This document shows, piece after piece, positions 20,242 to 32,000 of a stretch of 32,000 nt of DNA; position 1 is the stretch's first letter, and every line of letters starts with the position of its first letter. Location: assembly GCF_003010495.1 (NCBI RefSeq), contig NZ_CP027570.1, forward strand, positions 1,950,001 to 1,982,000, in the 5' to 3' direction. The translations under genes and the position numbers were made by a program. This DNA comes from Megasphaera elsdenii DSM 20460 (GTDB taxonomy: Bacteria > Bacillota > Negativicutes > Veillonellales > Megasphaeraceae). The notes under the pieces are model-generated. The model worked only from the letters and a program-made list of their open reading frames with translations. It did no database searches and was not told the DNA's origin.

Positions 20242-20299
20242 GTCGAATACGTATAGTAAAGAACGTTGTAAAGGATGTGATTTTGTGTATCTTACTTAT

Positions 20300-21946
20300 A
20301 TGCGTATTCAAAATTACCGGAATCTGCAAGATGTCGAAATGACTTTTCACGAAAAGGCCAACTATATCGTCGGGGAAAACGCCATCGGCAAGAGCGGCCT
20401 GCTGCGCCTCATTTCCTATATGAGCGATGGCCGCAACGTTGAAGAAGACGATTATGCCGACGTGACCCGGCCCATTATCATCACGATGGATCTGAACTTG
20501 CTGCAGAGTGAACGGGAACATTTCGCCGATACGCCGGACGAACGCCGCCAGAGTGTGCGCGTCCGCATGGAAATGCGCGTCAGCGACATGTATCCTCATC
20601 TCTACGATGACAACAGCGGCGAAGAACTGCCGTTAGAGCTCATCCGCCGCCTGCGCTACGTATCCTATTCGGCGGCTGTACCGGAAGAACAGCGCGTGCC
20701 GCCGCGCATTTACCGGGCCCTGGAACAGAAGCTGTCGAACTGGGGCGAGGCTCACTGGGATGGCCTGTCGGACGAAGCCAAGGCCTTCATCCACCACGAA
20801 GTCGCCGTCGGCACCATGGACTCGTCGTATTTCATCAACATTTTCCTCTTGTCCCGTCTCTTATGCCGCATGGACCGGCCCAGGGCGGACAATATGAAAT
20901 TCATTTCCCTGGCCGCGTTATGCATCATCACCCAGGTCTACCTGATGTCCATCAGCCGCGCCGTGCCCTTGGAACACAATGTCATCGTCGACGAAGCAGG
21001 TAAGCGCTATCTGCCCCTTGTCATTTCCATCGATGAACCGGAAATGCACCTCCATCCCTATATGCAGCGGTCGGTCCTGCATTATTACCAGCAGCTCCTC
21101 AACAATGAAGACCCGCAGTTCTGCACGCTCCTCAAGGATTTGTTCGGCCTCGACGGTCTGCGGGGCCAGTTGTTCATCGTCACCCATTCGACGGATTCCC
21201 TCATCGACGATTACCGCCACATCATCCGCCTGTACCGCAATAAACAGGGCCTGGTCAAAGCGGCCTGCGGTGCCGGCTTCCATTTCAGCGAAGAAATCGA
21301 GAAACACTTGATCATGCACTTCCCGGAAGTCAAAGAAGCCCTGTATTCGCGGAGCGTCCTCATCGTCGAAGGGGAAACGGAATACGGCTGCTTCCAGCAT
21401 TTCGGCAAGACCCTGGACCTGCCTTTCGATCACTACGGCATCTGCCTCATCAATGCCCGCGGCGAAAGTTCCATTTCCAAGATCAAGAAGCTCCTGGAAT
21501 ACTTCAAGATTCCCGTCGTCGCCCTCTACGACGCCGACGTCAAGGGCAGCCACAAGAGCGAACGGGGCGTCTACTTCACCGATGAAATCTGCTTTGAAAT
21601 GGACCTGGCCAAGACCATGATCGACCACGGCCAGCGCCGCGACCTGGACCGCATCATCAATACGGCCTGCGGCGAACACGCCCGGGCCACGACGGACATG
21701 ATCAAGAAGGCCTGCCGCAAACTGGACGTCAACTTCCACGACTATCCGGCCCGCCTTCTGTGGCACGTCAATCCGCGCAATAAGAAAGCCCTGTACATCT
21801 ATTATTTCGCCTGGCTCTACAGCAATAAAGGCGTCATCCTCGGCCGCCTCATCGGCCAGTCCCTGAAAAAAGAAGACATCCCGCCATCCTTCGTCCGCGC
21901 CATCGAAGCCGCCGGCCAGCTGGCAAAAGTCACAAAAGCCGTATAA
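20300..21946 (+). CDS. OLD-family ATP-dependent nuclease (ABC-type ATPase + C-terminal Toprim)
   Basis: Contains MRIQNYRNL...GENAIGKSG (Walker A), LVISIDEPEMHLHP (Walker B) and FIVTHS (H-loop). The Toprim motifs are VLIVEGETEY and ALYDADV (DxD). The start is uncertain: ATG 20300 or GTG 20285. The ORF-track TTG at 20240 sits inside the upstream terminator. Confidence 0.75.
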   Translation: MRIQNYRNLQDVEMTFHEKANYIVGENAIGKSGLLRLISYMSDGRNVEEDDYADVTRPIIITMDLNLLQSEREHFADTPDERRQSVRVRMEMRVSDMYPHLYDDNSGEELPLELIRRLRYVSYSAAVPEEQRVPPRIYRALEQKLSNWGEAHWDGLSDEAKAFIHHEVAVGTMDSSYFINIFLLSRLLCRMDRPRADNMKFISLAALCIITQVYLMSISRAVPLEHNVIVDEAGKRYLPLVISIDEPEMHLHPYMQRSVLHYYQQLLNNEDPQFCTLLKDLFGLDGLRGQLFIVTHSTDSLIDDYRHIIRLYRNKQGLVKAACGAGFHFSEEIEKHLIMHFPEVKEALYSRSVLIVEGETEYGCFQHFGKTLDLPFDHYGICLINARGESSISKIKKLLEYFKIPVVALYDADVKGSHKSERGVYFTDEICFEMDLAKTMIDHGQRRDLDRIINTACGEHARATTDMIKKACRKLDVNFHDYPARLLWHVNPRNKKALYIYYFAWLYSNKGVILGRLIGQSLKKEDIPPSFVRAIEAAGQLAKVTKAV

Positions 21947-22042: not shown

Positions 22043-22057
22043 GAATTTGCGTCCCGC

Positions 22058-22119
22058 GGGATTCCCACAAGCGGGCCGCCCTTTGGGACGGCCCCTACTA
22101 GCCACGAGCCACGAGCCAT
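22058..22119 (+). repeat. 41-nt hairpin module plus 3-unit heptad array (upstream of topB)
   Basis: GGGATTCCCACAAGCGGGCCGCCCTTTGGGACGGCCCCTAC is followed by TAGCCAC GAGCCAC GAGCCAT. The module matches 24437..24477 at 40 of 41 positions. Confidence 0.88.
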
Positions 22120-24416: not shown

Positions 24417-24436
24417 GTCCGCAGTCCGCATCCTGC

Positions 24437-24529
24437 GGGATTCCCACAAACGGGCCGCCCTTTGGGACGGCCCCTACGAGCTACGAACCACGAGTCACGA
24501 GCCACGAACCACGAGCCACGAATCACGGG
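24437..24529 (+). repeat. 41-nt hairpin module plus 8-unit heptad array (downstream of topB)
   Basis: GGGATTCCCACAAACGGGCCGCCCTTTGGGACGGCCCCTAC is followed by (C)TACGAG CTACGAA CCACGAG TCACGAG CCACGAA CCACGAG CCACGAA TCACGGG at 7-nt period. Confidence 0.88.
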
Positions 24530-24587
24530 ATTCCCACAACGGGCCGCCTTTACAGGACGGTCCCTACTAGCCACGAACACAGGCCTA
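24527..24587 (+). repeat. Diverged hairpin module plus short degenerate heptads
   Basis: GGGATTCCCACAACGGGCCGCCTTTACAGGACGGTCCCTAC is followed by TAGCCAC GAACACA GGCCTAT. The stem keeps pairing only via G-U on the + strand. Confidence 0.75.
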
Positions 24588-24651: not shown

Positions 24652-25800
24652 ATGAAACGAATTTATTTAGATAATGCGGCTGCGACGCCTATGGACCCGC
24701 GCGTCCTGGACGTCATGATGCCCTATTTGACGACGGCTTACGGCAATCCGTCGAGCCTTCATTATTTCGGCCAGCAGGCCCGGGCTGCCGTCCAGACGGC
24801 GCGCAGCCAGGTGGCCCACTGCCTGGGCGTCAAAGGGGAAGACCTGGTCTTCACCAGTGGCGGCACGGAAGCGGACAATCTGGCCATCCTCGGCTTCCTG
24901 CGGGCCAATTTCCCCGACGGCGGCCATCTTATCACGACGGCTGTGGAACACCACGCCGTCCTGCGGACCTTCCAGGCCCTGGAACAAAAGGGGTACGACG
25001 TGACCTATGTCCCTGTCGAAGCCGACGGCCGGGTCACGGCCGAAGCCGTCGCTCAGGCCTTGCGCGATGATACGGTCCTCATTTCTGTCATGTACGCCAA
25101 TAATGAAACGGGCATGGTCCAGCCTGTCGACGCCATCGGCGCCCTGGCCCGGCAGAAGGGCATCGCCTTTCACGTCGATGCCGTCCAGGCCTTTGGCTAC
25201 GTGCCCATCCGCCCTTTGGAACAGGGCATCGACATGCTGACCGTGTGCAGCCATAAGATTTACGGTCCCAAAGGCGTCGGCGCCTTGTATATCCGCCACG
25301 GCCTGCAAGTCGCCGCCGAAGCCTACGGCGGCCCCCAGGAACACCGCCTGCGGGCGGGGACGGAGAACGTCGCTGCCATCGCCGGCTTCGGCAAGGCTGC
25401 GGAACTCCTGGGAGCCGAACGGAACGACCGCGTCCTGGCGGCGCGGCGCCTGACCGATGCCGTCTACGAGCGGCTCATCAAGGGCGACGCCCGGTTCCAC
25501 CTCAATGGCCGGCGCAATCACGTCCTGCCCAACATCATCGACTTCAGCGTCGATGGGGTGGACAGCGCCATTTTGCTCATCGCCCTCGATCTCCAGGGAC
25601 TGGCCGTATCTGCCGGTTCGGCCTGTGAAGCTGGTGCCGTCGAGGCATCCCATGTCCTCCAGGCTATGGGAATCGAAGAGAAGTGGCTGCGCAGCAGTAT
25701 CCGCTTGTCCGTAGGCAAAGAGAATACGTTAGATGAAATAAAACGAGCCGTTGCCATCATTGGCGACGCTGTCCGTAAAAGCAGAGGAGAATCATTATGA
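24652..25800 (+). CDS. nifS: Cysteine desulfurase, NifS/YrvO-like (class V aminotransferase)
   Basis: Contains MKRIYLDNAAATPMDPRV, the PLP lysine in CSHKIYGPKGVG, and the active-site Cys in SAGSACEAG. The ATGA overlap with mnmA matches the yrvO-mnmA pairing known from B. subtilis. Confidence 0.88.
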   Translation: MKRIYLDNAAATPMDPRVLDVMMPYLTTAYGNPSSLHYFGQQARAAVQTARSQVAHCLGVKGEDLVFTSGGTEADNLAILGFLRANFPDGGHLITTAVEHHAVLRTFQALEQKGYDVTYVPVEADGRVTAEAVAQALRDDTVLISVMYANNETGMVQPVDAIGALARQKGIAFHVDAVQAFGYVPIRPLEQGIDMLTVCSHKIYGPKGVGALYIRHGLQVAAEAYGGPQEHRLRAGTENVAAIAGFGKAAELLGAERNDRVLAARRLTDAVYERLIKGDARFHLNGRRNHVLPNIIDFSVDGVDSAILLIALDLQGLAVSAGSACEAGAVEASHVLQAMGIEEKWLRSSIRLSVGKENTLDEIKRAVAIIGDAVRKSRGESL

Positions 25801-26876
25801 AACGAGTTGCCGTAGCTATGAGCGGCGGCGTCGACAGTTCGGTCACAGCCGGTCTCTTGAAGCAGCAAGGGTATGATGTCATCGGCATTACCCTGCGCCT
25901 GTGGGAAGAAGATCCGGCTTGCACCATCGATAACGTCCACGCCTGCTGCTCCCTCAGTTCCGTCGACGATGCCAAAGCCGTCGCTTCGGTCCTGGGGATT
26001 CCCCATTATACTTTGGATTTCCGCGATATCTTCCGGCGCGACGTCATTGACTATTTCGTCGATGCTTACGTCCACGGCAAGACGCCCAATCCCTGTATTG
26101 CCTGCAATAAATTCATTAAGTTCGGCCTGCTCTGGGAGAAAGCCCGACAGTTCGGCGCCGATTTCCTGGCGACTGGTCATTACGCCCGCATCGAAAAGAA
26201 CGAAGCGACGGGAATCTATTCCTTGCTCCGCGGCACAGACCGCCGCAAGGACCAGTCCTATGTCCTCTATCAATTGACACAGGACTTGTTGCCGCATATT
26301 TTGTTCCCCATGGCCGACCTGGAAAAGGTCCATACGCGGGAACTGGCCAAGGAATGGGGCCTGCCGGTCTTCAATAAGCCCGAAAGCCAGGATATCTGCT
26401 TTATTCCGGACAACGATTATAAGGGATTTTTGCAGCACGAACGGAAGGGCATCTTCAAGCCTGGCGACTTCGTCGATAAAGAAGGCCATGTCATCGGCCG
26501 CCATAAAGGCATCGCCGCCTATACCATCGGCCAGCGCCGGGGCCTGAACCTCGGCGGTCCCGGCGGCCCTTATTACGTGACGGCCCTGGACGTAGCTCAT
26601 AATAAAGTCATCGTCGGTTCGGAACGGGACTTGTTCTCGAAGACGGTCCATGCCAGTGAAGCGACCTGGGTCGAACAGACGCCGGACGCTCCTTTCCGGG
26701 CCTTGGGCAAGATACGTTATGCTGCCCGGGAAGCGGCCTGCACGGTCTATCCCGATGGCGACAGCCTGCAGGTCGAATTCGACGACGCCCAGCGTGCCGT
26801 CACGGCCGGCCAGGCCTTGGTACTTTACGACGCCGACACAGGCGAACGCGTCCTGGGCGGTGGCGTTATCCAATAG
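25797..26876 (+). CDS. mnmA: tRNA 2-thiouridine(34) synthase
   Basis: Contains VAVAMSGGVDSSV (PP-loop), NPCIACNKFIKF and RKDQSYVLY. Length is 359 aa. Confidence 0.93.
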   Translation: MKRVAVAMSGGVDSSVTAGLLKQQGYDVIGITLRLWEEDPACTIDNVHACCSLSSVDDAKAVASVLGIPHYTLDFRDIFRRDVIDYFVDAYVHGKTPNPCIACNKFIKFGLLWEKARQFGADFLATGHYARIEKNEATGIYSLLRGTDRRKDQSYVLYQLTQDLLPHILFPMADLEKVHTRELAKEWGLPVFNKPESQDICFIPDNDYKGFLQHERKGIFKPGDFVDKEGHVIGRHKGIAAYTIGQRRGLNLGGPGGPYYVTALDVAHNKVIVGSERDLFSKTVHASEATWVEQTPDAPFRALGKIRYAAREAACTVYPDGDSLQVEFDDAQRAVTAGQALVLYDADTGERVLGGGVIQ

Positions 26877-26894
26877 AAAAAGAGGAGGACTACC

Positions 26895-26945
26895 GTGTCT
26901 ACAGATCATATCAGAAACTTTTCAATTATTGCTACATATCTCTGA
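26895..26945 (+). pseudogene. lepA: 5' stub of lepA (elongation factor 4) truncated by insertion of the integrative element
   Basis: A strong RBS (AGAGGAGG) precedes GTG 26895. The ORF encodes VSTDHIRNFSIIA, matching the invariant LepA N-terminus IRNFSIIAHIDHGKST, then diverges (TYL-stop) exactly where the G1 motif HIDHGKS should follow. Confidence 0.8.
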
Positions 26946-26954
26946 AACTCAGCT

Positions 26955-28079
26955 CTATGCCTCATTCTTCTTATCGTCTACTGCAACACTACTGCAACCG
27001 GGCAAAGAAACGCCTTTAATTTCGTCGTAGACCTCGTTTTGCATGGCGTTGATATAAATAGATGTCGTGACGATAGAAGAGTGTCTCAACTGCTTTGAGA
27101 TGGTTCTTAGAGGGACTCCCTCTTTGGCCAGTATCGTAGCATGTAGATGCCTCAATATATGGACCGAACCTCTGGGGGACACCCGTAACATAGCTCGGTG
27201 TAGCGTAGCCGTTACACTGTCTGGTTTAAGGTGTCTCCCATTTTTATCACAAAAGACGAATTCGCTACTGATTCCTGCCTTCCTGTATTCGTCTTTAAGG
27301 TTTGCAATCAGTTCCATTCCGTCGTCAGGTATCTGGACTATCTGTCCAGAGATGCCGTTCTTGGGAGTCTTTATATACAGACGATGAGATGTAGCCTGAC
27401 AGGTATAATTTCTCCTTACCGTAACGATACCTTTCTCTTCATCAATATCTTCCCACTTCAATCCGATTAGCTCTCCCCGTCGTAGGCCGGTATATAAACA
27501 AAATAATCCTAGGTATCTCATACCGATAGGGTGAAGTTCGTTCAGTGACTTAATGACATCCTCCACTTTCGGAAGTATGTATGGGTTCTGTTTGCGATGG
27601 CTTATAAAATCTAAATCAACCCCATGATGTATATATCCTTCTTTCTGAGCCTGTTTCAAAGCCCTCATATAGAATTTTACCGTCGTGTGAGTCGTAGCTT
27701 CTGCATAACCCATTCCTTTCATATTAGCTGCGAAAGCCTTCAATGTGGAATCTGTGACTTGTGATAGTTTGAGTTCCCCGGTAAGCCTTATGATTCTCCT
27801 GGATATAGATTGATAATTCTCTATGGTGCTGTTATTCGTAAGAGGCAGGCTATTGACATGGTGGGGAAGGTAATCAGCTACCGTCATATTCTTGCTCTGA
27901 GGGACGATTTCCCCCGATGTTAATTTCTCTTTTATCTTCTTCTTGAGTTTGGCCAACGCCTCGGTCTTGTTCTTTCCATAGGCGGTGATTCGTTTCTTGT
28001 CTATCGTCTCTTGGGCGCAATAAGTCCCATCTTTCCTTACATATACGGTTCCTTCTCCGTTGCTTCTCTTTCGTGCCAT
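26955..28079 (-). CDS. int: Tyrosine-type site-specific integrase
   Basis: The catalytic residues sit in the expected contexts: TGLRRGEL (R), HILRHLHAT (HxxR), LRHSS (H) and TTSIYI (Y). The N-terminus GEGTVYVRKDGTYCAQ is an arm-binding-type domain. Confidence 0.9.
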   Translation of the reverse strand: MARKRSNGEGTVYVRKDGTYCAQETIDKKRITAYGKNKTEALAKLKKKIKEKLTSGEIVPQSKNMTVADYLPHHVNSLPLTNNSTIENYQSISRRIIRLTGELKLSQVTDSTLKAFAANMKGMGYAEATTHTTVKFYMRALKQAQKEGYIHHGVDLDFISHRKQNPYILPKVEDVIKSLNELHPIGMRYLGLFCLYTGLRRGELIGLKWEDIDEEKGIVTVRRNYTCQATSHRLYIKTPKNGISGQIVQIPDDGMELIANLKDEYRKAGISSEFVFCDKNGRHLKPDSVTATLHRAMLRVSPRGSVHILRHLHATILAKEGVPLRTISKQLRHSSIVTTSIYINAMQNEVYDEIKGVSLPGCSSVAVDDKKNEA

Positions 28080-28108
28080 TCATACTCACCTCTTGTGTTT
28101 ATTATAAC

Positions 28109-28137
28109 ATTATATGCAATGACGCGGTAGATGACAA
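28109..28137 (-). promoter_or_regulatory. Putative leftward promoter for int (-35 TTGTCA, 17-nt spacer, -10 TATAAT, minus strand)
   Basis: Plus-strand TGACAA at 28132-28137 and ATTATA at 28109-28114. It lies ~30 nt upstream of the int ATG (28079). Confidence 0.5.
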
Positions 28138-28143
28138 AATGGC

Positions 28144-28172
28144 TTGACATAGAACATGCGTTCTATTATAAT
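28144..28172 (+). promoter_or_regulatory. Rightward consensus sigma-70-type promoter P1 with an inverted repeat in the spacer
   Basis: TTGACA (28144-28149), an exact 17-nt spacer, and TATAAT (28167-28172). The spacer is TAGAAC-ATGC-GTTCTA (28150-28165), an operator-like inverted repeat. Confidence 0.6.
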
Positions 28173-28215
28173 GAAAACAACAGGGAGAAAATTACAAAAA
28201 GTTAGTATAGTCAAT

Positions 28216-28244
28216 TTGACATACTCACTTACATGTAGTATAAT
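28216..28244 (+). promoter_or_regulatory. Rightward consensus sigma-70-type promoter P2
   Basis: TTGACA (28216-28221), an exact 17-nt spacer containing the palindrome TACATGTA (28230-28237), and TATAAT (28239-28244). It lies ~24 nt upstream of the Xis-like ORF. Confidence 0.6.
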
Positions 28245-28267
28245 AATCACAGGAAGTGAGTTAGGAG

Positions 28268-28441
28268 GTGAGCCCCATACTTCTCAAGACGAAAGAGGTC
28301 GCTGAGTACCTCAAGATTTCAGACCAGCAGGTAAGGCGGCTGGTGGACAAGAAGGAACTTCCGTGTATTAGAATCTCCCAAAGGGTCCTTCGGTTCAGGA
28401 AGGAAGACGTTGAAGAATTCATTTCAGGGAGGGAAATATAA
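28268..28441 (+). CDS. Excisionase/AlpA-type helix-turn-helix DNA-binding protein (57 aa; below the ORF-track size cutoff)
   Basis: My translation from GTG 28268 is VSPILLKTKEVAEYLKISDQQVRRLVDKKELPCIRISQRVLRFRKEDVEEFISGREI. This is the typical MerR-superfamily excisionase pattern. The stop overlaps the next ATG (TAATG). Confidence 0.7.
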   Translation: MSPILLKTKEVAEYLKISDQQVRRLVDKKELPCIRISQRVLRFRKEDVEEFISGREI

Positions 28442-28623
28442 TGGACCAATACATTGTGGAGTTCAGAATGTCGGGAAAGACTTTCCCGGAACACTATACC
28501 GTGGACACCCGGAAAGAGGCATACCAGCTCTTAGACGAGTTGATTGAAGAAGCCGAAGGCTGGGGGGACAGGTGGGAGGGTAAAATCTCGAAAGCTCACC
28601 ACTTCGACTATAAGTCCCACTAA
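28441..28623 (+). CDS. Hypothetical small protein (60 aa)
   Basis: A GGGAGGGA RBS is present, and the ORF is translationally coupled to the upstream ORF. I recognise no motif. Confidence 0.5.
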   Translation: MDQYIVEFRMSGKTFPEHYTVDTRKEAYQLLDELIEEAEGWGDRWEGKISKAHHFDYKSH

Positions 28624-28681
28624 GGGACTTCATTTACCCTTGAATACTCACTTTTAGTGATTTTTAATAGGAGGAATCATT

Positions 28682-29431
28682 ATGACAAACACAGAAATTA
28701 TGGAAGCATTGAAGGCACCGTTCAAACCGGAAGAGGTCATGTGGGTTATCGGACGCAAGAGCAAGGACAAGAGCAAAGCCGAAGCCATGGCTTACATCAG
28801 CTCCCGGGCGGTCATGGAACGTCTTGATGAAGTAGTAGGCCCCGATAAATGGGAAGTCGAATACATCCCGGCGGATATGGGGACAGCAACACGGACGACA
28901 TATAAAGGAGAAGAAACATATAGTATCAAAGGCTTCTTGGCCAAGATGACGTTGCATCTGCCGGAAGGTGATGTGTCGAGAATGGACGGAGCTAACTGCA
29001 CAGATTTCAGCCCGTTCAAAGGCGGTATTACCGGAGCCATGCGCCGTGTAGCTTCTGCTTTTGGCATTGGCCGTTACCTGTACAACCTGCCTCGTCAGTG
29101 GGTGCCTATTGACCAGTGGGGTAACTTTACAGAACGTCCGAAGCTTCCGAGTTGGGCGTTACCGGAAGGAACTGTTCAGGACGAACCGGAACCGAGACAG
29201 TCTTACCATCGTGAAGATTCCTACGAAGAACATCAGCCGCAGGCATCCTCGACTGGAGAAGTTATGATGCCGCCGAACACGAAGTACGCAGGCAAACCGG
29301 TATCTTCGGTTACGGACTTCGGTTATCTGACTTGGGTAGTCAATAAGTCTCGATTCTCGGAAGAAGTCAAGAACGCCGCAGCGAAAGTACTTGCCGATCA
29401 GCAGGCGGCTATGTATGACGAACCGGCTTAG
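28682..29431 (+). CDS. Rad52/22-family single-strand annealing protein (phage recombinase)
   Basis: LKAPFKPEEVMW...AYISSRAVMERLDEVVGPDKWEVEY...GAMRRVASAFGIGRYLYNLP matches the Rad52/Sak-type pattern (AYI.AR.V.DRLD...GP..W and FGIGRYLY). Confidence 0.7.
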   Translation: MTNTEIMEALKAPFKPEEVMWVIGRKSKDKSKAEAMAYISSRAVMERLDEVVGPDKWEVEYIPADMGTATRTTYKGEETYSIKGFLAKMTLHLPEGDVSRMDGANCTDFSPFKGGITGAMRRVASAFGIGRYLYNLPRQWVPIDQWGNFTERPKLPSWALPEGTVQDEPEPRQSYHREDSYEEHQPQASSTGEVMMPPNTKYAGKPVSSVTDFGYLTWVVNKSRFSEEVKNAAAKVLADQQAAMYDEPA

Positions 29432-29441
29432 GAGGTAGCCT

Positions 29442-29702
29442 ATGGAGTTAGACGTAAGACTTTGCCAGAAAGTAGGCGTAAGCGCGGCTATTGTCCATTC
29501 GGTCATTCGTAAGCAGTGCGAAGTGAAAGGTGTCCCCTTCGAGGGGCACCGGTTCGCTCGCATGTCCATTGGAGATATTAACCGTAAGATACCGTTCCTT
29601 TCGGCAAGGACAATAACAAGAGCGTTGGACCGACTCGAAGCAAAAGGGTTGGTAGAGAATAGAACATTCGTGGGAACCACAAAGTGGAGGAGAGCATTAT
29701 GA
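29442..29702 (+). CDS. Small winged-helix DNA-binding protein (86 aa)
   Basis: FLSARTITRALDRLEAKGLVEN is a MarR/wHTH-like recognition segment. The RBS is AGGAGG. Confidence 0.5.
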   Translation: MELDVRLCQKVGVSAAIVHSVIRKQCEVKGVPFEGHRFARMSIGDINRKIPFLSARTITRALDRLEAKGLVENRTFVGTTKWRRAL

Positions 29703-30130
29703 GTAGAATTAATGTTTACCAAAGGAATAAATGGGTTAATCTCTGGGTGAGTTACATGGGCGGGAAGAGGTTTTCTTGGCTTGTTTCTGCTAAGGCCACA
29801 ACTGATGAATTCGAGTGTGATTACTCTATGCTTAACAAGCTATGCAGGTCTGGGCTATCCAGTACAGCCAAGGGTATTTTCTCTTTTATACTCCTTAATC
29901 GGTATCTTCCCACGAAAGTCTGTCTATATGGACAGACAACTATTGCAAAGATGTATGGGTGCGCTAACAACACTGCCAGAAGAGCATTGAATGAACTCGA
30001 AGATAACAAAATTATTTACTCCCTCAAGATACACACTGGAAGGTATATAGCATACCAATACGTTATCAACGAATACAAAGAGTGGAACTTACCCGAAAAT
30101 AGTAAGGGGATACACGAGGAGAAAATTTGA
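29699..30130 (+). CDS. wHTH protein, tandem paralog 1 (143 aa)
   Basis: It has an ATGA overlap with the upstream ORF and a GGAGGA RBS. The central segment is TIAKMYGCANNTARRALNELEDNKII. It is a paralog of 30173..30646. Confidence 0.6.
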   Translation: MSRINVYQRNKWVNLWVSYMGGKRFSWLVSAKATTDEFECDYSMLNKLCRSGLSSTAKGIFSFILLNRYLPTKVCLYGQTTIAKMYGCANNTARRALNELEDNKIIYSLKIHTGRYIAYQYVINEYKEWNLPENSKGIHEEKI

Positions 30131-30172
30131 AAGTAGAACGTTCATAGGTAATAAGAAATGGAGGAAAGCACT

Positions 30173-30646
30173 ATGAACACAGAAAAGAAGAATATGATTT
30201 CGGTATATCCGGTTAATAAGTGGGTGAACAAGTGGGTCATAAAGAGAGGTGCTAGAGACTTCGTTTGGAGAATATCTACAAAAGCTCCTACAGATTCTTT
30301 ACATATATCTCCAGACCAAATGATGGTTTTAACAGAATCTGGATTATCTCCTACAGCTAAAAGTATATTTGCTTTTCTTTTCCATCACCGTTTTTCAACC
30401 ACAAGAGTTTGTCTATATGGCTCGTTGACCATTGCACGAATGTACGGATGTGCGAATAATACTGCCAAAAAAGCTCTGAAAGAACTCGAAGCTAGTAACA
30501 TTATAAATAAATTGAAGATTTACACTGGGAAGAATGTATCGTATCAGTATTACATTACCGACTATGGCAAATGGATTCTCCCTAAAAATAGGCGTTCTGG
30601 TGAAAATATTGAAGCCCCTATGCAAGTGATTGAATTAGATGAGTAG
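30173..30646 (+). CDS. wHTH protein, tandem paralog 2 (157 aa)
   Basis: About half of ungapped aligned residues are identical to paralog 1 (my manual count, 69 of ~133), e.g. NKWVN.WV, SGLS.TAK.IF.F, VCLYG..TIA.MYGCANNTA..AL.ELE. The RBS context is also duplicated. Confidence 0.6.
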   Translation: MNTEKKNMISVYPVNKWVNKWVIKRGARDFVWRISTKAPTDSLHISPDQMMVLTESGLSPTAKSIFAFLFHHRFSTTRVCLYGSLTIARMYGCANNTAKKALKELEASNIINKLKIYTGKNVSYQYYITDYGKWILPKNRRSGENIEAPMQVIELDE

Positions 30647-30667
30647 GGTGTCAATAATTAATCTCTA

Positions 30668-30691
30668 TCTAAACTTCTAAACCTCTAAACC
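30668..30691 (+). repeat. Three direct 8-bp-period iterons TCTAAAC(y)
   Basis: TCTAAAC occurs at 30668, 30676 and 30684. Confidence 0.7.
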
Positions 30692-30733
30692 TGTCCGAGG
30701 TAACGCACCTCTTACGAGGTGCTACCTCGGACA
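30692..30733. repeat. 18-bp-stem hairpin with a 2-nt bulge
   Basis: In TGTCCGAGGTA-AC-GCACCTC-TTAC-GAGGTGC-TACCTCGGACA the 11-bp and 7-bp stems pair perfectly. No U-tract follows. Confidence 0.8.
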
Positions 30734-30896
30734 ATAAGAGATTCGTTCGCTTTCGCTCTCTCATCTCTCTAGTATTACATACTAGTTAATTAATTAATTT
30801 AAATTCTAAAGTTCTACACTAACTCTAGAATTACAATCTTAAAATAGCTCGTTGACCACAGGCCAATGAGTTATCTTAATTAATTAAATATAATAA

Positions 30897-30946
30897 GTTG
30901 GTATGATTCTTTATCTGGAGGTAGAAAGAACGATACCAAGTAATTA
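30897..30946 (+). repeat. 50-bp stem-loop repeat, copy 1
   Basis: GTTGGTATGATTC...ATACCAAGTAATTA has the same 36-nt arm spacing as copy 2. The arms are mutually inverted (TTGGTAT/ATACCAA). The loop contains GGAGGTAGAAA, identical to the RBS region at 31163-31173. Confidence 0.75.
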
Positions 30947-31107
30947 CTTGTATATGTTAGATTGATAATAGAGAAATTCTTAACCGGTTAAAAGATTAGA
31001 TAAAGAAGATGTATCCCCAACCACGGGCGGGGGATAGATATTAATTAAATGAATGTTTTTAATCTCCTCATTTTCTCCCGGTTAATGTTTTACTCATCAT
31101 TAGATGA

Positions 31108-31157
31108 GTTGGTATGGTTCGTTCTACCGCCCGTGAATGAATCATACCAAGTAATTA
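31108..31157 (+). repeat. 50-bp stem-loop repeat, copy 2
   Basis: GTTGGTATGGTTC...ATACCAAGTAATTA gives a 16-bp stem if two G-U pairs are allowed on the + strand. It lies immediately upstream of the RBS of ORF 31173. Confidence 0.75.
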
Positions 31158-31172
31158 ATATAGGAGGTAGAA

Positions 31173-31481
31173 ATGAACAAAGACACTGAACGAGATAGGT
31201 TAGCTCAACTCTACCTTGACCAGACCGTCGGCAAAGAATGTTGGGGGTATCAGAACTACGAGAATGTAATGGAAGCTTTCAACAAGAGCCCTGACGGGGA
31301 CATCACAAATATGATAAACTATCTACAGACCCATGTGATGCCTCTAGGTACACCTCTCCGGGAACTGTATCATGAAGCTTCCTCATGGAGAGCTTTCGAC
31401 TACTACAAGGAACAGCCTCGTCCCAAACTGACTGACGAGGTGGCTTACTCCATTGACATGCTGATGAAATTAAGGGGGTAA
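31173..31481 (+). CDS. Hypothetical protein (102 aa)
   Basis: A strong RBS (AGGAGG) is present and the composition is coding-like. I recognise no motif. Confidence 0.5.
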   Translation: MNKDTERDRLAQLYLDQTVGKECWGYQNYENVMEAFNKSPDGDITNMINYLQTHVMPLGTPLRELYHEASSWRAFDYYKEQPRPKLTDEVAYSIDMLMKLRG

Positions 31482-31485
31482 TATT

Positions 31486-31698
31486 ATGACAGAACAGGAA
31501 AGACAGGATAAGATTTTTAAAGGATTGGTCATGTTATTGATGCAAGTCGATAAATACTTTGAACGGGAGGATGATGGTGCCGAGAAAGGAGAATTGGTTA
31601 TTCTCAAAGGCCTTATCCGGAAACGGAAAGATAGTTTACTTGACTTACTGGAGAGAAAGAATGATAACATCATCCAGTTCCCGGGATTGAAAGACTGA
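31486..31698 (+). CDS. Hypothetical protein (70 aa)
   Basis: The RBS is AAGGGGG. The sequence is charged and helical-looking. I recognise no motif. Confidence 0.45.
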   Translation: MTEQERQDKIFKGLVMLLMQVDKYFEREDDGAEKGELVILKGLIRKRKDSLLDLLERKNDNIIQFPGLKD

Positions 31699-31714
31699 TA
31701 TTCAGGAGGCACAC

Positions 31715-32000
31715 ATGGACATCCAAAACATCATCATTCAGAAAATAGATTTACCACAGTTCATCAAAGATTACGCTCATGTGGAACTTGTACGCAAAGG
31801 GAATGGCTGGCGGTGTAAATGCCCCATCCATGAGAACTCTGTCAATCCAGAGGCTATGTATGTTGACGACCGTGGCGGTTACTACTGCTTCGCCTGCAAC
31901 TCGGGAGGGAATGTCATCAACTTCCTTTCTGATTACGAGCATATCAGCTACAGTGCCGCCACAGAACGTCTTGCCTCTATGCTGAATATCAACCTCAAAG
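31715..32000 (+). CDS. DNA primase, N-terminal CHC2 zinc-finger domain (partial; continues past window end; absent from ORF track)
   Basis: My translation from ATG 31715 (RBS AGGAGG) is MDIQNIIIQKIDLPQFIKDYAHVELVRKGNGWRCKCPIHENSVNPEAMYVDDRGGYYCFACNSGGNVINFLSDYEHISY... The pattern C.CP.H...C..C..GG.VI.F is the DnaG/phage-primase zinc finger. The frame has no stop up to 32000. Confidence 0.75.
   Translation, partial: MDIQNIIIQKIDLPQFIKDYAHVELVRKGNGWRCKCPIHENSVNPEAMYVDDRGGYYCFACNSGGNVINFLSDYEHISYSAATERLASMLNINLK

Follow-up and report, generated by a model that had tools for sequence, protein, structure and literature searches.

Near the right end of the 32,000-nt stretch of the Megasphaera elsdenii DSM 20460 genome that we analyzed (hereafter the window, to whose numbering plain positions refer), the tRNA 2-thiouridylase gene mnmA is followed by the ribosome-binding site (RBS) and first codons of lepA, the gene for EF4. 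The lepA sequence breaks off almost at once, and a convergent tyrosine integrase gene (int) begins, with its stop codon 9 nt past that of the truncated lepA frame. We consider it highly probable that this junction is the left attachment site (attL) of a temperate Megasphaera phage that integrates at the start of lepA, that the gene is rebuilt at the other end of the prophage, and that a phage promoter would serve it there. Genome coordinates, where we use them, are those of HE576794.1 (M. elsdenii DSM 20460), which matches the window at 100% identity across the 11 kb that we compared; the integrase protein is unchanged in this record and in other assemblies.

After the mnmA stop codon TAG, the window reads AAAAAGAGGAGGACTACC and then, at position 26895, the GTG of a short open reading frame (ORF) that consists of lepA codons 1 to 13 followed by phage sequence and a stop. 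The match of the stub to lepA is not a matter of chance: the 53 bases from 26877 to 26929 recur without a mismatch at the start of an intact 600-aa lepA in another part of this genome, and again where lepA begins after mnmA in a contig of M. elsdenii that lacks the element. BLAST alignment of the window to the uninterrupted host site reaches 26940, with a 1-nt shift at 26933 that accounts for the TYL-stop ending of the stub. G+C content falls at the junction from about 0.57 to 0.42-0.45, and the window contains no tRNA genes. A preliminary description of this DNA had reported a strong RBS and a GTG ORF directly after mnmA that ends in TYL-stop, a change in base composition at the same place, and an integrase gene ending about 20 nt further on. 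Reading positions 26877-26945 bears out each of these, and the last distance measures 22 nt from the lepA/phage junction. Its interpretation, an integrative element that interrupts lepA inside the first 13 codons and leaves a stub beside the host promoter, also holds. Given that int is accompanied by an excisionase-like gene, an Erf/Rad52-type gene and replication-initiator-like genes (Table 1), the element is a prophage.

All four forms of the attachment site were recovered from several independent assemblies: two copies of the empty host site (attB), nine of the phage site (attP), six of attL including the window, and eight of the junction on the lepA side (attR). Their arms are consistent with a single reciprocal exchange. 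In the element-free contig (L029), MnmA is identical to that of the window, and its TAG is followed by AAAAAGAGGAGGACTACC and an intact lepA that reads VSTDHIRNFSIIAHIDHGKST (GTG TCT ACA GAT CAT ATC AGA AAC TTT TCA ATT ATC GCG CAT ATC GAC CAT GGC AAA TCG). The second attB copy (L011), from a metagenome-assembled genome of a related Megasphaera, has the same mnmA-lepA order.

At the nine attP loci, int adjoins the opposite end of the phage and not mnmA, and this junction is internal to the contigs, which are about 53-68 kb long (most phage contigs are 65-69 kb). BLAST identity between the window and these contigs begins exactly at 26877. The host-derived copy in attP is 56 bp long, runs from AAAAAGAGGAGG through the GTG to codon 13, and is identical to window positions 26877-26932; it is followed by one extra T and then by ACATATC, which represents lepA codons 14-15 out of frame. 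The mini-ORF seen in the window is therefore also carried by the free phage, in nine of nine attP copies. The phage arm opposite int holds a divergent HTH_3 (helix-turn-helix) regulator, a phage DnaE, a GH25 lysin and a tail-like gene for a protein of about 2,680 aa, the last two of which adjoin both attP and attR.

At the eight attR loci, this phage arm is joined to lepA. We reached the copy in DSM 20460 itself (L138; HE576794.1 2,107,845-2,116,210) via cluster members of the phage HTH protein that adjoins attP; searching by homology with the 51 N-terminal residues of LepA had returned short fragments only and no full-length M. elsdenii LepA. In L138, the phage arm is followed by an RBS, a GTG and an uninterrupted 600-aa LepA with GTP_EFTU, D2, EFG_C and LepA_C domains, and then by hemN-like, rpsU and yqeY genes. 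The N-terminal 86 residues of this LepA are identical to those encoded by the element-free attB contig. The 53-bp perfect repeat occupies 2,111,553-2,111,605 at attR and 2,154,949-2,155,001 at attL, with 43.3 kb between the copies. The preliminary description had suggested looking at the far end of the element for a second att copy with the rest of lepA, and at an element-free relative for attB. The former lies 43.3 kb away, the latter is L029 with its mnmA and intact lepA, and the far end, where a missing lepA remainder would have spoken against insertion, carries the 600-aa gene.

Seen from the window alone, where only the 16-codon stub is visible before phage DNA takes over, the insertion could be read as inactivating lepA. 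The prophage would then be of the gene-disrupting ("active lysogeny") kind known from comK, and lepA would be restored only upon excision. We find this extremely improbable and reject it. At the other end of the prophage, both in the same genome and at seven other lysogen loci, lepA is uninterrupted at 600 aa and has an RBS and GTG of its own, and attP carries the lepA 5' end, so the gene is rebuilt. Given that attR holds an intact lepA whose N-terminus matches that of the element-free contig, lepA is neither inactivated nor altered.

We propose that the tyrosine integrase inserts the phage at the very start of lepA by recombination inside codons 1-12. The exchange leaves the mnmA operon, the decoy stub and the convergent int at attL, and the phage arm, the same RBS and start codon, and the remainder of lepA at attR. 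With the RBS, GTG and codons 1-13 of lepA borne on attP, the encoded LepA keeps its full length and all its amino acids. Polymorphisms among the att copies delimit the site of exchange. Three attR copies retain the phage variant ATTCCT at 26890-26894, and position 26930 is the host C in all eight attR copies, but T in all nine attP copies and in five of the six attL copies. Therefore, the crossover falls within 26895-26929, and its resolution is 35 bp and no narrower.

The preliminary description had also singled out two related motifs flanking the junction, at 26907-26919 and 26935-26949, as possible core-type integrase sites. Both motifs are present, forming an imperfect direct repeat (CATATC..GAAACT), and we found no inverted repeat of 6 nt or more in 26870-26960. 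The second CATATC is what is left of the His-Ile codons 14-15 of lepA, shifted by the 1-nt indel, and it lies outside the crossover interval. Since the repeat is direct rather than inverted and its second copy is outside that interval, we set the pair aside and think a role as core sites unlikely. Four copies of a repeat, TACTGCAAC, are better candidates for integrase sites, in this case of the arm type. In 20 kb of the attP locus L013, four of four copies lie within about 200 bp of the core (0.15 expected), arranged as two tandem pairs with copies 11-12 bp apart, one pair in each arm and all in a single orientation. Their placement suggests that they are arm-type sites.

A number of short Logan contigs (L030-L037 and L015-L023) stop exactly 30 nt into the shared att core. 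Those on the mnmA side end at window-equivalent position 26906 and those on the phage-arm side at 26924, and others end at the T/C polymorphism at 26930. If a k of 31 is assumed for these assemblies, such ends would be the signature of host and phage arms, or of attB and attL, coexisting in a sample.

How lepA is expressed in the lysogen is a separate matter from its integrity. In attB, the mnmA-lepA spacer is 18 nt and a promoter-sized gap is absent; this makes it most likely that lepA shares a transcript with iscS-mnmA or is transcribed from a site inside mnmA. Integration would separate lepA from the iscS-mnmA transcription unit by 43-68 kb. The phage arm contains a promoter-like site, TTGGAA-17-TATAAT (10/12 consensus matches), that is directed toward lepA and ends 56 nt before its GTG. 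Both hexamers and the 17-nt spacing are invariant in 17 of 17 phage arms, although nearby positions vary and two arms share one change within the spacer. Given this conservation, and given that the adjacent phage gene is divergent, we propose that the phage supplies the lepA promoter and that lepA at attR would be transcribed from this phage-borne, sigma-70-type site. The preliminary description had allowed for a new 5' end and promoter provided to lepA by the far end of the element. The 5' end was found; for the promoter, we found a promoter-like site only. The 16-residue stub should still be made at attL, from host transcripts and by way of the intact RBS, and, given the lack of a terminator-like hairpin, the host transcription would be predicted to run antisense into int. 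It is conceivable, though in our view improbable, that such read-through across the stub has a function of its own, damping excision.

Three sets of observations weigh against this account. First, the promoter is a consensus match only, and lepA at attR could be reached by read-through from phage genes. This raises the potential that lepA is rebuilt but that TTGGAA-17-TATAAT is not its promoter, the gene being read through from the phage or poorly expressed, and the site serving the phage instead, for example in antisense transcription across int in attP. Promoter-like sites number 4 in 500 bp, compared to 1.8 in shuffled sequences, and in attP the site faces the 3' end of int, and we found no terminator-like hairpin separating the two. 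We nevertheless think this alternative unlikely. Its hexamers and spacing have been kept in every arm despite polymorphism elsewhere, and the nearest upstream phage gene, which encodes the HTH protein, is divergent, with no other obvious source of rightward transcription within about 300 bp in a repressed lysogen. Analogous elements also supply a promoter to their target, SXT at prfC and the islands at dusA (PMC8409611).

The second observation concerns the crossover interval. In the attL copy L001, from a phage variant of about 95% identity, position 26930 is the host-type C, and phage-type GCTACATATC follows. This copy is discordant with the interval unless its attP carries C at 26930; the cause may be another attP allele or exchange at another point.

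Third, the copy in DSM 20460 spans about 43 kb, compared to 65-69 kb for the free-phage contigs, and has both an insertion sequence and a shortened DnaE. It could thus be a dead remnant whose junction is a fossil and not a working att site, a reading to which we give even chances. The distance between its repeats is 43.3 kb, when phage contigs measure 65-69 kb; the insertion sequence (HTH_Tnp_1 plus rve transposase) lies inside the prophage (L002 2790-3982); and DnaE is split or shortened into 883 aa and 87 aa, compared to 950-991 aa (L138 4613-7588). However, this copy has kept int, the excisionase-like gene and both att repeats intact, and all of them match the free phage exactly. Moreover, the dead-remnant reading bears on the mobility of the DSM 20460 copy alone and leaves the identity of the junction as it is. 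We conclude that this copy is probably a decayed prophage, which may no longer be inducible.

The features on either side of the junction are collected in Table 1. Within the replication-initiator-like region, the two HTH_36 paralogues (29684-30130, 148 aa; 30158-30646, 162 aa) resemble replication initiators or DnaD-like loaders, and the number and spacing of HTH_36 ORFs vary among related phage contigs. The prophage part of the window had no match among deposited phage genomes by megablast, and no protein match of the integrase in those genomes reached 28% identity. Exact-pattern scans for the phage arm likewise gave 0 matches in IMG/VR and JGI metagenomes. The phage dnaE gene is itself subject to mobile endonuclease insertions (proteins P0147, P0152 and P0186; loci L015, L027, L133 and L139): some variants encode DnaE of 1,215-1,217 aa with an intein and an HNH endonuclease (Pfam Intein_splicing and HNH), and others have a free-standing HNH/NUMOD4 gene that sits beside dnaE or splits it.

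Table 1. Features at and around the lepA/phage junction (window positions; aa, amino acids)
Feature	Position	Strand	Basis and remarks
mnmA (tRNA 2-thiouridylase)	25797-26876	+	TAG at 26874-26876; Pfam tRNA_Me_trans; last host gene before the junction
Common core, 53 bp	26877-26929	+	Perfect direct repeat at both prophage ends; lepA RBS, GTG, codons 1-11 plus 2 nt
lepA Shine-Dalgarno sequence GAGGAGG	26882-26888	+	Read directly; kept in all attB, attP, attL and attR copies
Interval holding the strand-exchange site	26895-26929	+	Polymorphisms among att copies; lepA codons 1-12
Stub (decoy) ORF, 16 codons, VSTDHIRNFSIIATYL then stop	26895-26945	+	GTG 26895-26897, TGA 26943-26945
Extra T (first phage-specific base) and ACATATC	26933-26940	+	Residual match to lepA codons 14-15; attL and attP compared with attB L011 and L029
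Left 5 kb of the prophage	26933-32000		G+C drop; 95-99% identity to attP-bearing contigs L004, L013 and L014
Tyrosine integrase (int), 374 aa	26955-28079	-	Pfam Phage_integrase (PF00589) 1.4e-24, Phage_int_SAM_5 2.3e-07, phrog_1 1.7e-54
Two tandem TACTGCAAC repeats, P' arm, candidate arm-type sites	26979-26998	+	Within the int 3' end; 2 in the window vs 0.11 expected
Excisionase-like HTH_17 protein, 57 aa	28268-28441	+	Pfam HTH_17 3.3e-15; PHROG excisionase families; beside int
Erf/Rad52-like single-strand annealing protein	28682-29431	+	Pfam Rad52_Rad22 3.1e-13; phrog_1097 3.6e-38
Replication-initiator-like HTH genes	29442-30646	+	86-aa ORF and two tandem HTH_36 paralogues; Pfam, PHROG

Two further observations concern the host DNA upstream. 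A repeated intergenic element of about 70 nt flanks topA, at 22049-22118, 24428-24497 and 24518-24587 (also 24476-24527), and is made up of a G+C-rich, hairpin-like segment (GGGCCGCCCTTTGGGACGGCCC) and, after it, about 6.6 copies of the heptamer ACGAGCC; it has the look of a REP-type M. elsdenii repeat. Just upstream of topA, at about 20285-21946 on the plus strand (L002 16134-17795), lies a gene for a 553-aa OLD-family protein with an AAA_15/AAA_21 ATPase and an OLD-like TOPRIM domain, a candidate anti-phage defence gene.

Prophages are, to our knowledge, little studied in Negativicutes, and the locus provides a complete sequence-level account of an att site at the 5' end of a protein-coding gene in a member of this group, with four att forms, a crossover interval, candidate arm sites and a candidate promoter. 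This kind of att site is already known, and no new mechanism is revealed. The start of lepA as a recurrent phage target of unrelated integrases should help in predicting prophage boundaries, which annotation pipelines otherwise miss or replace with a call of truncated lepA. In addition, the integrase and its 53-bp site constitute a ready-made integration system for engineering M. elsdenii, an industrial and rumen organism. Because unrelated integrase lineages use these codons, each with a decoy start, and the Megasphaera phage adds a promoter-like site, one might go further and ask whether the lepA site is more than a conserved, dispensable safe harbour, with the phage taking over EF4 transcription and uncoupling it from iscS-mnmA because the EF4 level feeds back on induction or on lysogen fitness. 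A Salmonella lepA mutant does show reduced induction of the prophage Gifsy-1 (PMC13090387), although we regard this idea as a long shot.

Several known elements solve a similar problem in related ways. The SXT/R391 integrative and conjugative elements, at the 5' end of prfC, and the dusA elements (IMEVchUSA3) resemble the Megasphaera phage in using a tyrosine integrase at the 5' end of a conserved gene, and prfC encodes RF3, a translational GTPase like LepA. The prfC and dusA elements supply a new promoter and restore the reading frame (PMC2791158; PMC8409611, citing Hochhut and Waldor 1999), and this promoter function was shown experimentally (PMC8409611), whereas it is only predicted for the Megasphaera phage. 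They give their targets an altered protein N-terminus, whereas attB and attR encode the same LepA N-terminus, and they are conjugative or mobilizable elements and not phages.

Phages e14 and 21 in icd, as well as phages that target tRNA genes, carry in attP a duplicate of whichever gene segment they displace, so that the gene stays intact (PMC3603311, PMC4632033). The Megasphaera phage does the same, but those phages duplicate the 3' end of a target that keeps its own promoter and start, whereas the Megasphaera phage duplicates the 5' end, and expression signals must therefore come from the phage. Prophages of the active-lysogeny kind, such as the Listeria comK phage and the lipase-converting phage of Staphylococcus aureus, also lie inside protein-coding genes (PMC4632033). 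These interrupt their target in the lysogen, whereas lepA in the Megasphaera lysogen is rebuilt.

The closest parallels are other phages at lepA. The preliminary description had called the 5' end of lepA an unusual att site, which does not hold, as Gifsy-1 is documented there and at least 25 proteobacterial viral contigs share its decoy design. Gifsy-1 of Salmonella integrates within the lepA coding sequence and leaves its function unchanged (PMC4632033); the insertion is at the 5' end of the gene (PMC10100743), with a recognition site within its first 123 bp (PMC13090387), and lepA appears in a list of protein-coding genes that serve as integration loci in Salmonella (PMC3603311). When the ends of the Gifsy-1 record are joined, they read ATG AAG AAC ATA AGA AAT TTT TCG ATC ATT GCT CAC ATC GAT AAT TGA, that is, MKNIRNFSIIAHIDN and a stop. 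Gifsy-1 and the Megasphaera phage thus share essentially the same lepA codons, an attP decoy start that stops just before the G1 motif, and an unchanged lepA frame.

We scanned IMG/VR with degenerate codons for IRNFSIIA and obtained 90 matching stretches (loci L038-L127), none of them a Megasphaera copy. At least 25 of these stretches, on proteobacterial viral contigs, are decoys that end just after AHID or AHIN, with endings such as IRNFSIIAHIDN, AHINH or AHINN before the stop. On many such contigs, an integrase of the Gifsy-1 type follows the decoy. Four contigs hold both a decoy and a full lepA, and thus both prophage ends (L043/L098, L067/L053, L108/L044 and L080/L039 among the loci). In the seven decoy contigs that we checked, the downstream integrase is 39-95% identical to Gifsy-1 Int. 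These matches indicate that the start of lepA is a widespread att site for the Gifsy-1-type integrase lineage.

The Megasphaera phage differs from this lineage in several respects. Its integrase is unrelated to that of Gifsy-1 in pairwise comparison (BLASTP E 0.96 or worse) and has no significant similarity to the set of Gifsy-1 Int and its seven relatives (BLASTP E 0.027 or worse). In Gifsy-1 and the seven IMG/VR relatives, the decoy is followed by an int gene that reads in the same direction, whereas the Megasphaera int runs toward its decoy and has its 3' end at the core. The duplicated core of the Megasphaera phage also includes the Shine-Dalgarno sequence, unlike that of Gifsy-1, and the hosts belong to different phyla, Proteobacteria for Gifsy-1 and Bacillota (Negativicutes) for the Megasphaera phage. 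Group VII prophages of Latilactobacillus curvatus have likewise been reported in lepA, with the att sequence AGAAGCCTTCATGTCCATT (PMC10688831, Supplementary Table 3). They come from another lineage of Bacillota and share the lepA target with the Megasphaera phage, but their att sequence differs; ATGGACATGAAG, found in the reverse complement of that sequence, may correspond to the region of the start codon. Two unrelated integrase lineages, that of Gifsy-1 and that found here in Negativicutes, have converged on the same dozen lepA codons, with Lactobacillaceae perhaps a third case. The Megasphaera phage is an independent arrival at the known lepA 5'-end decoy strategy, by way of an integrase lineage unrelated to the Gifsy-1 type.

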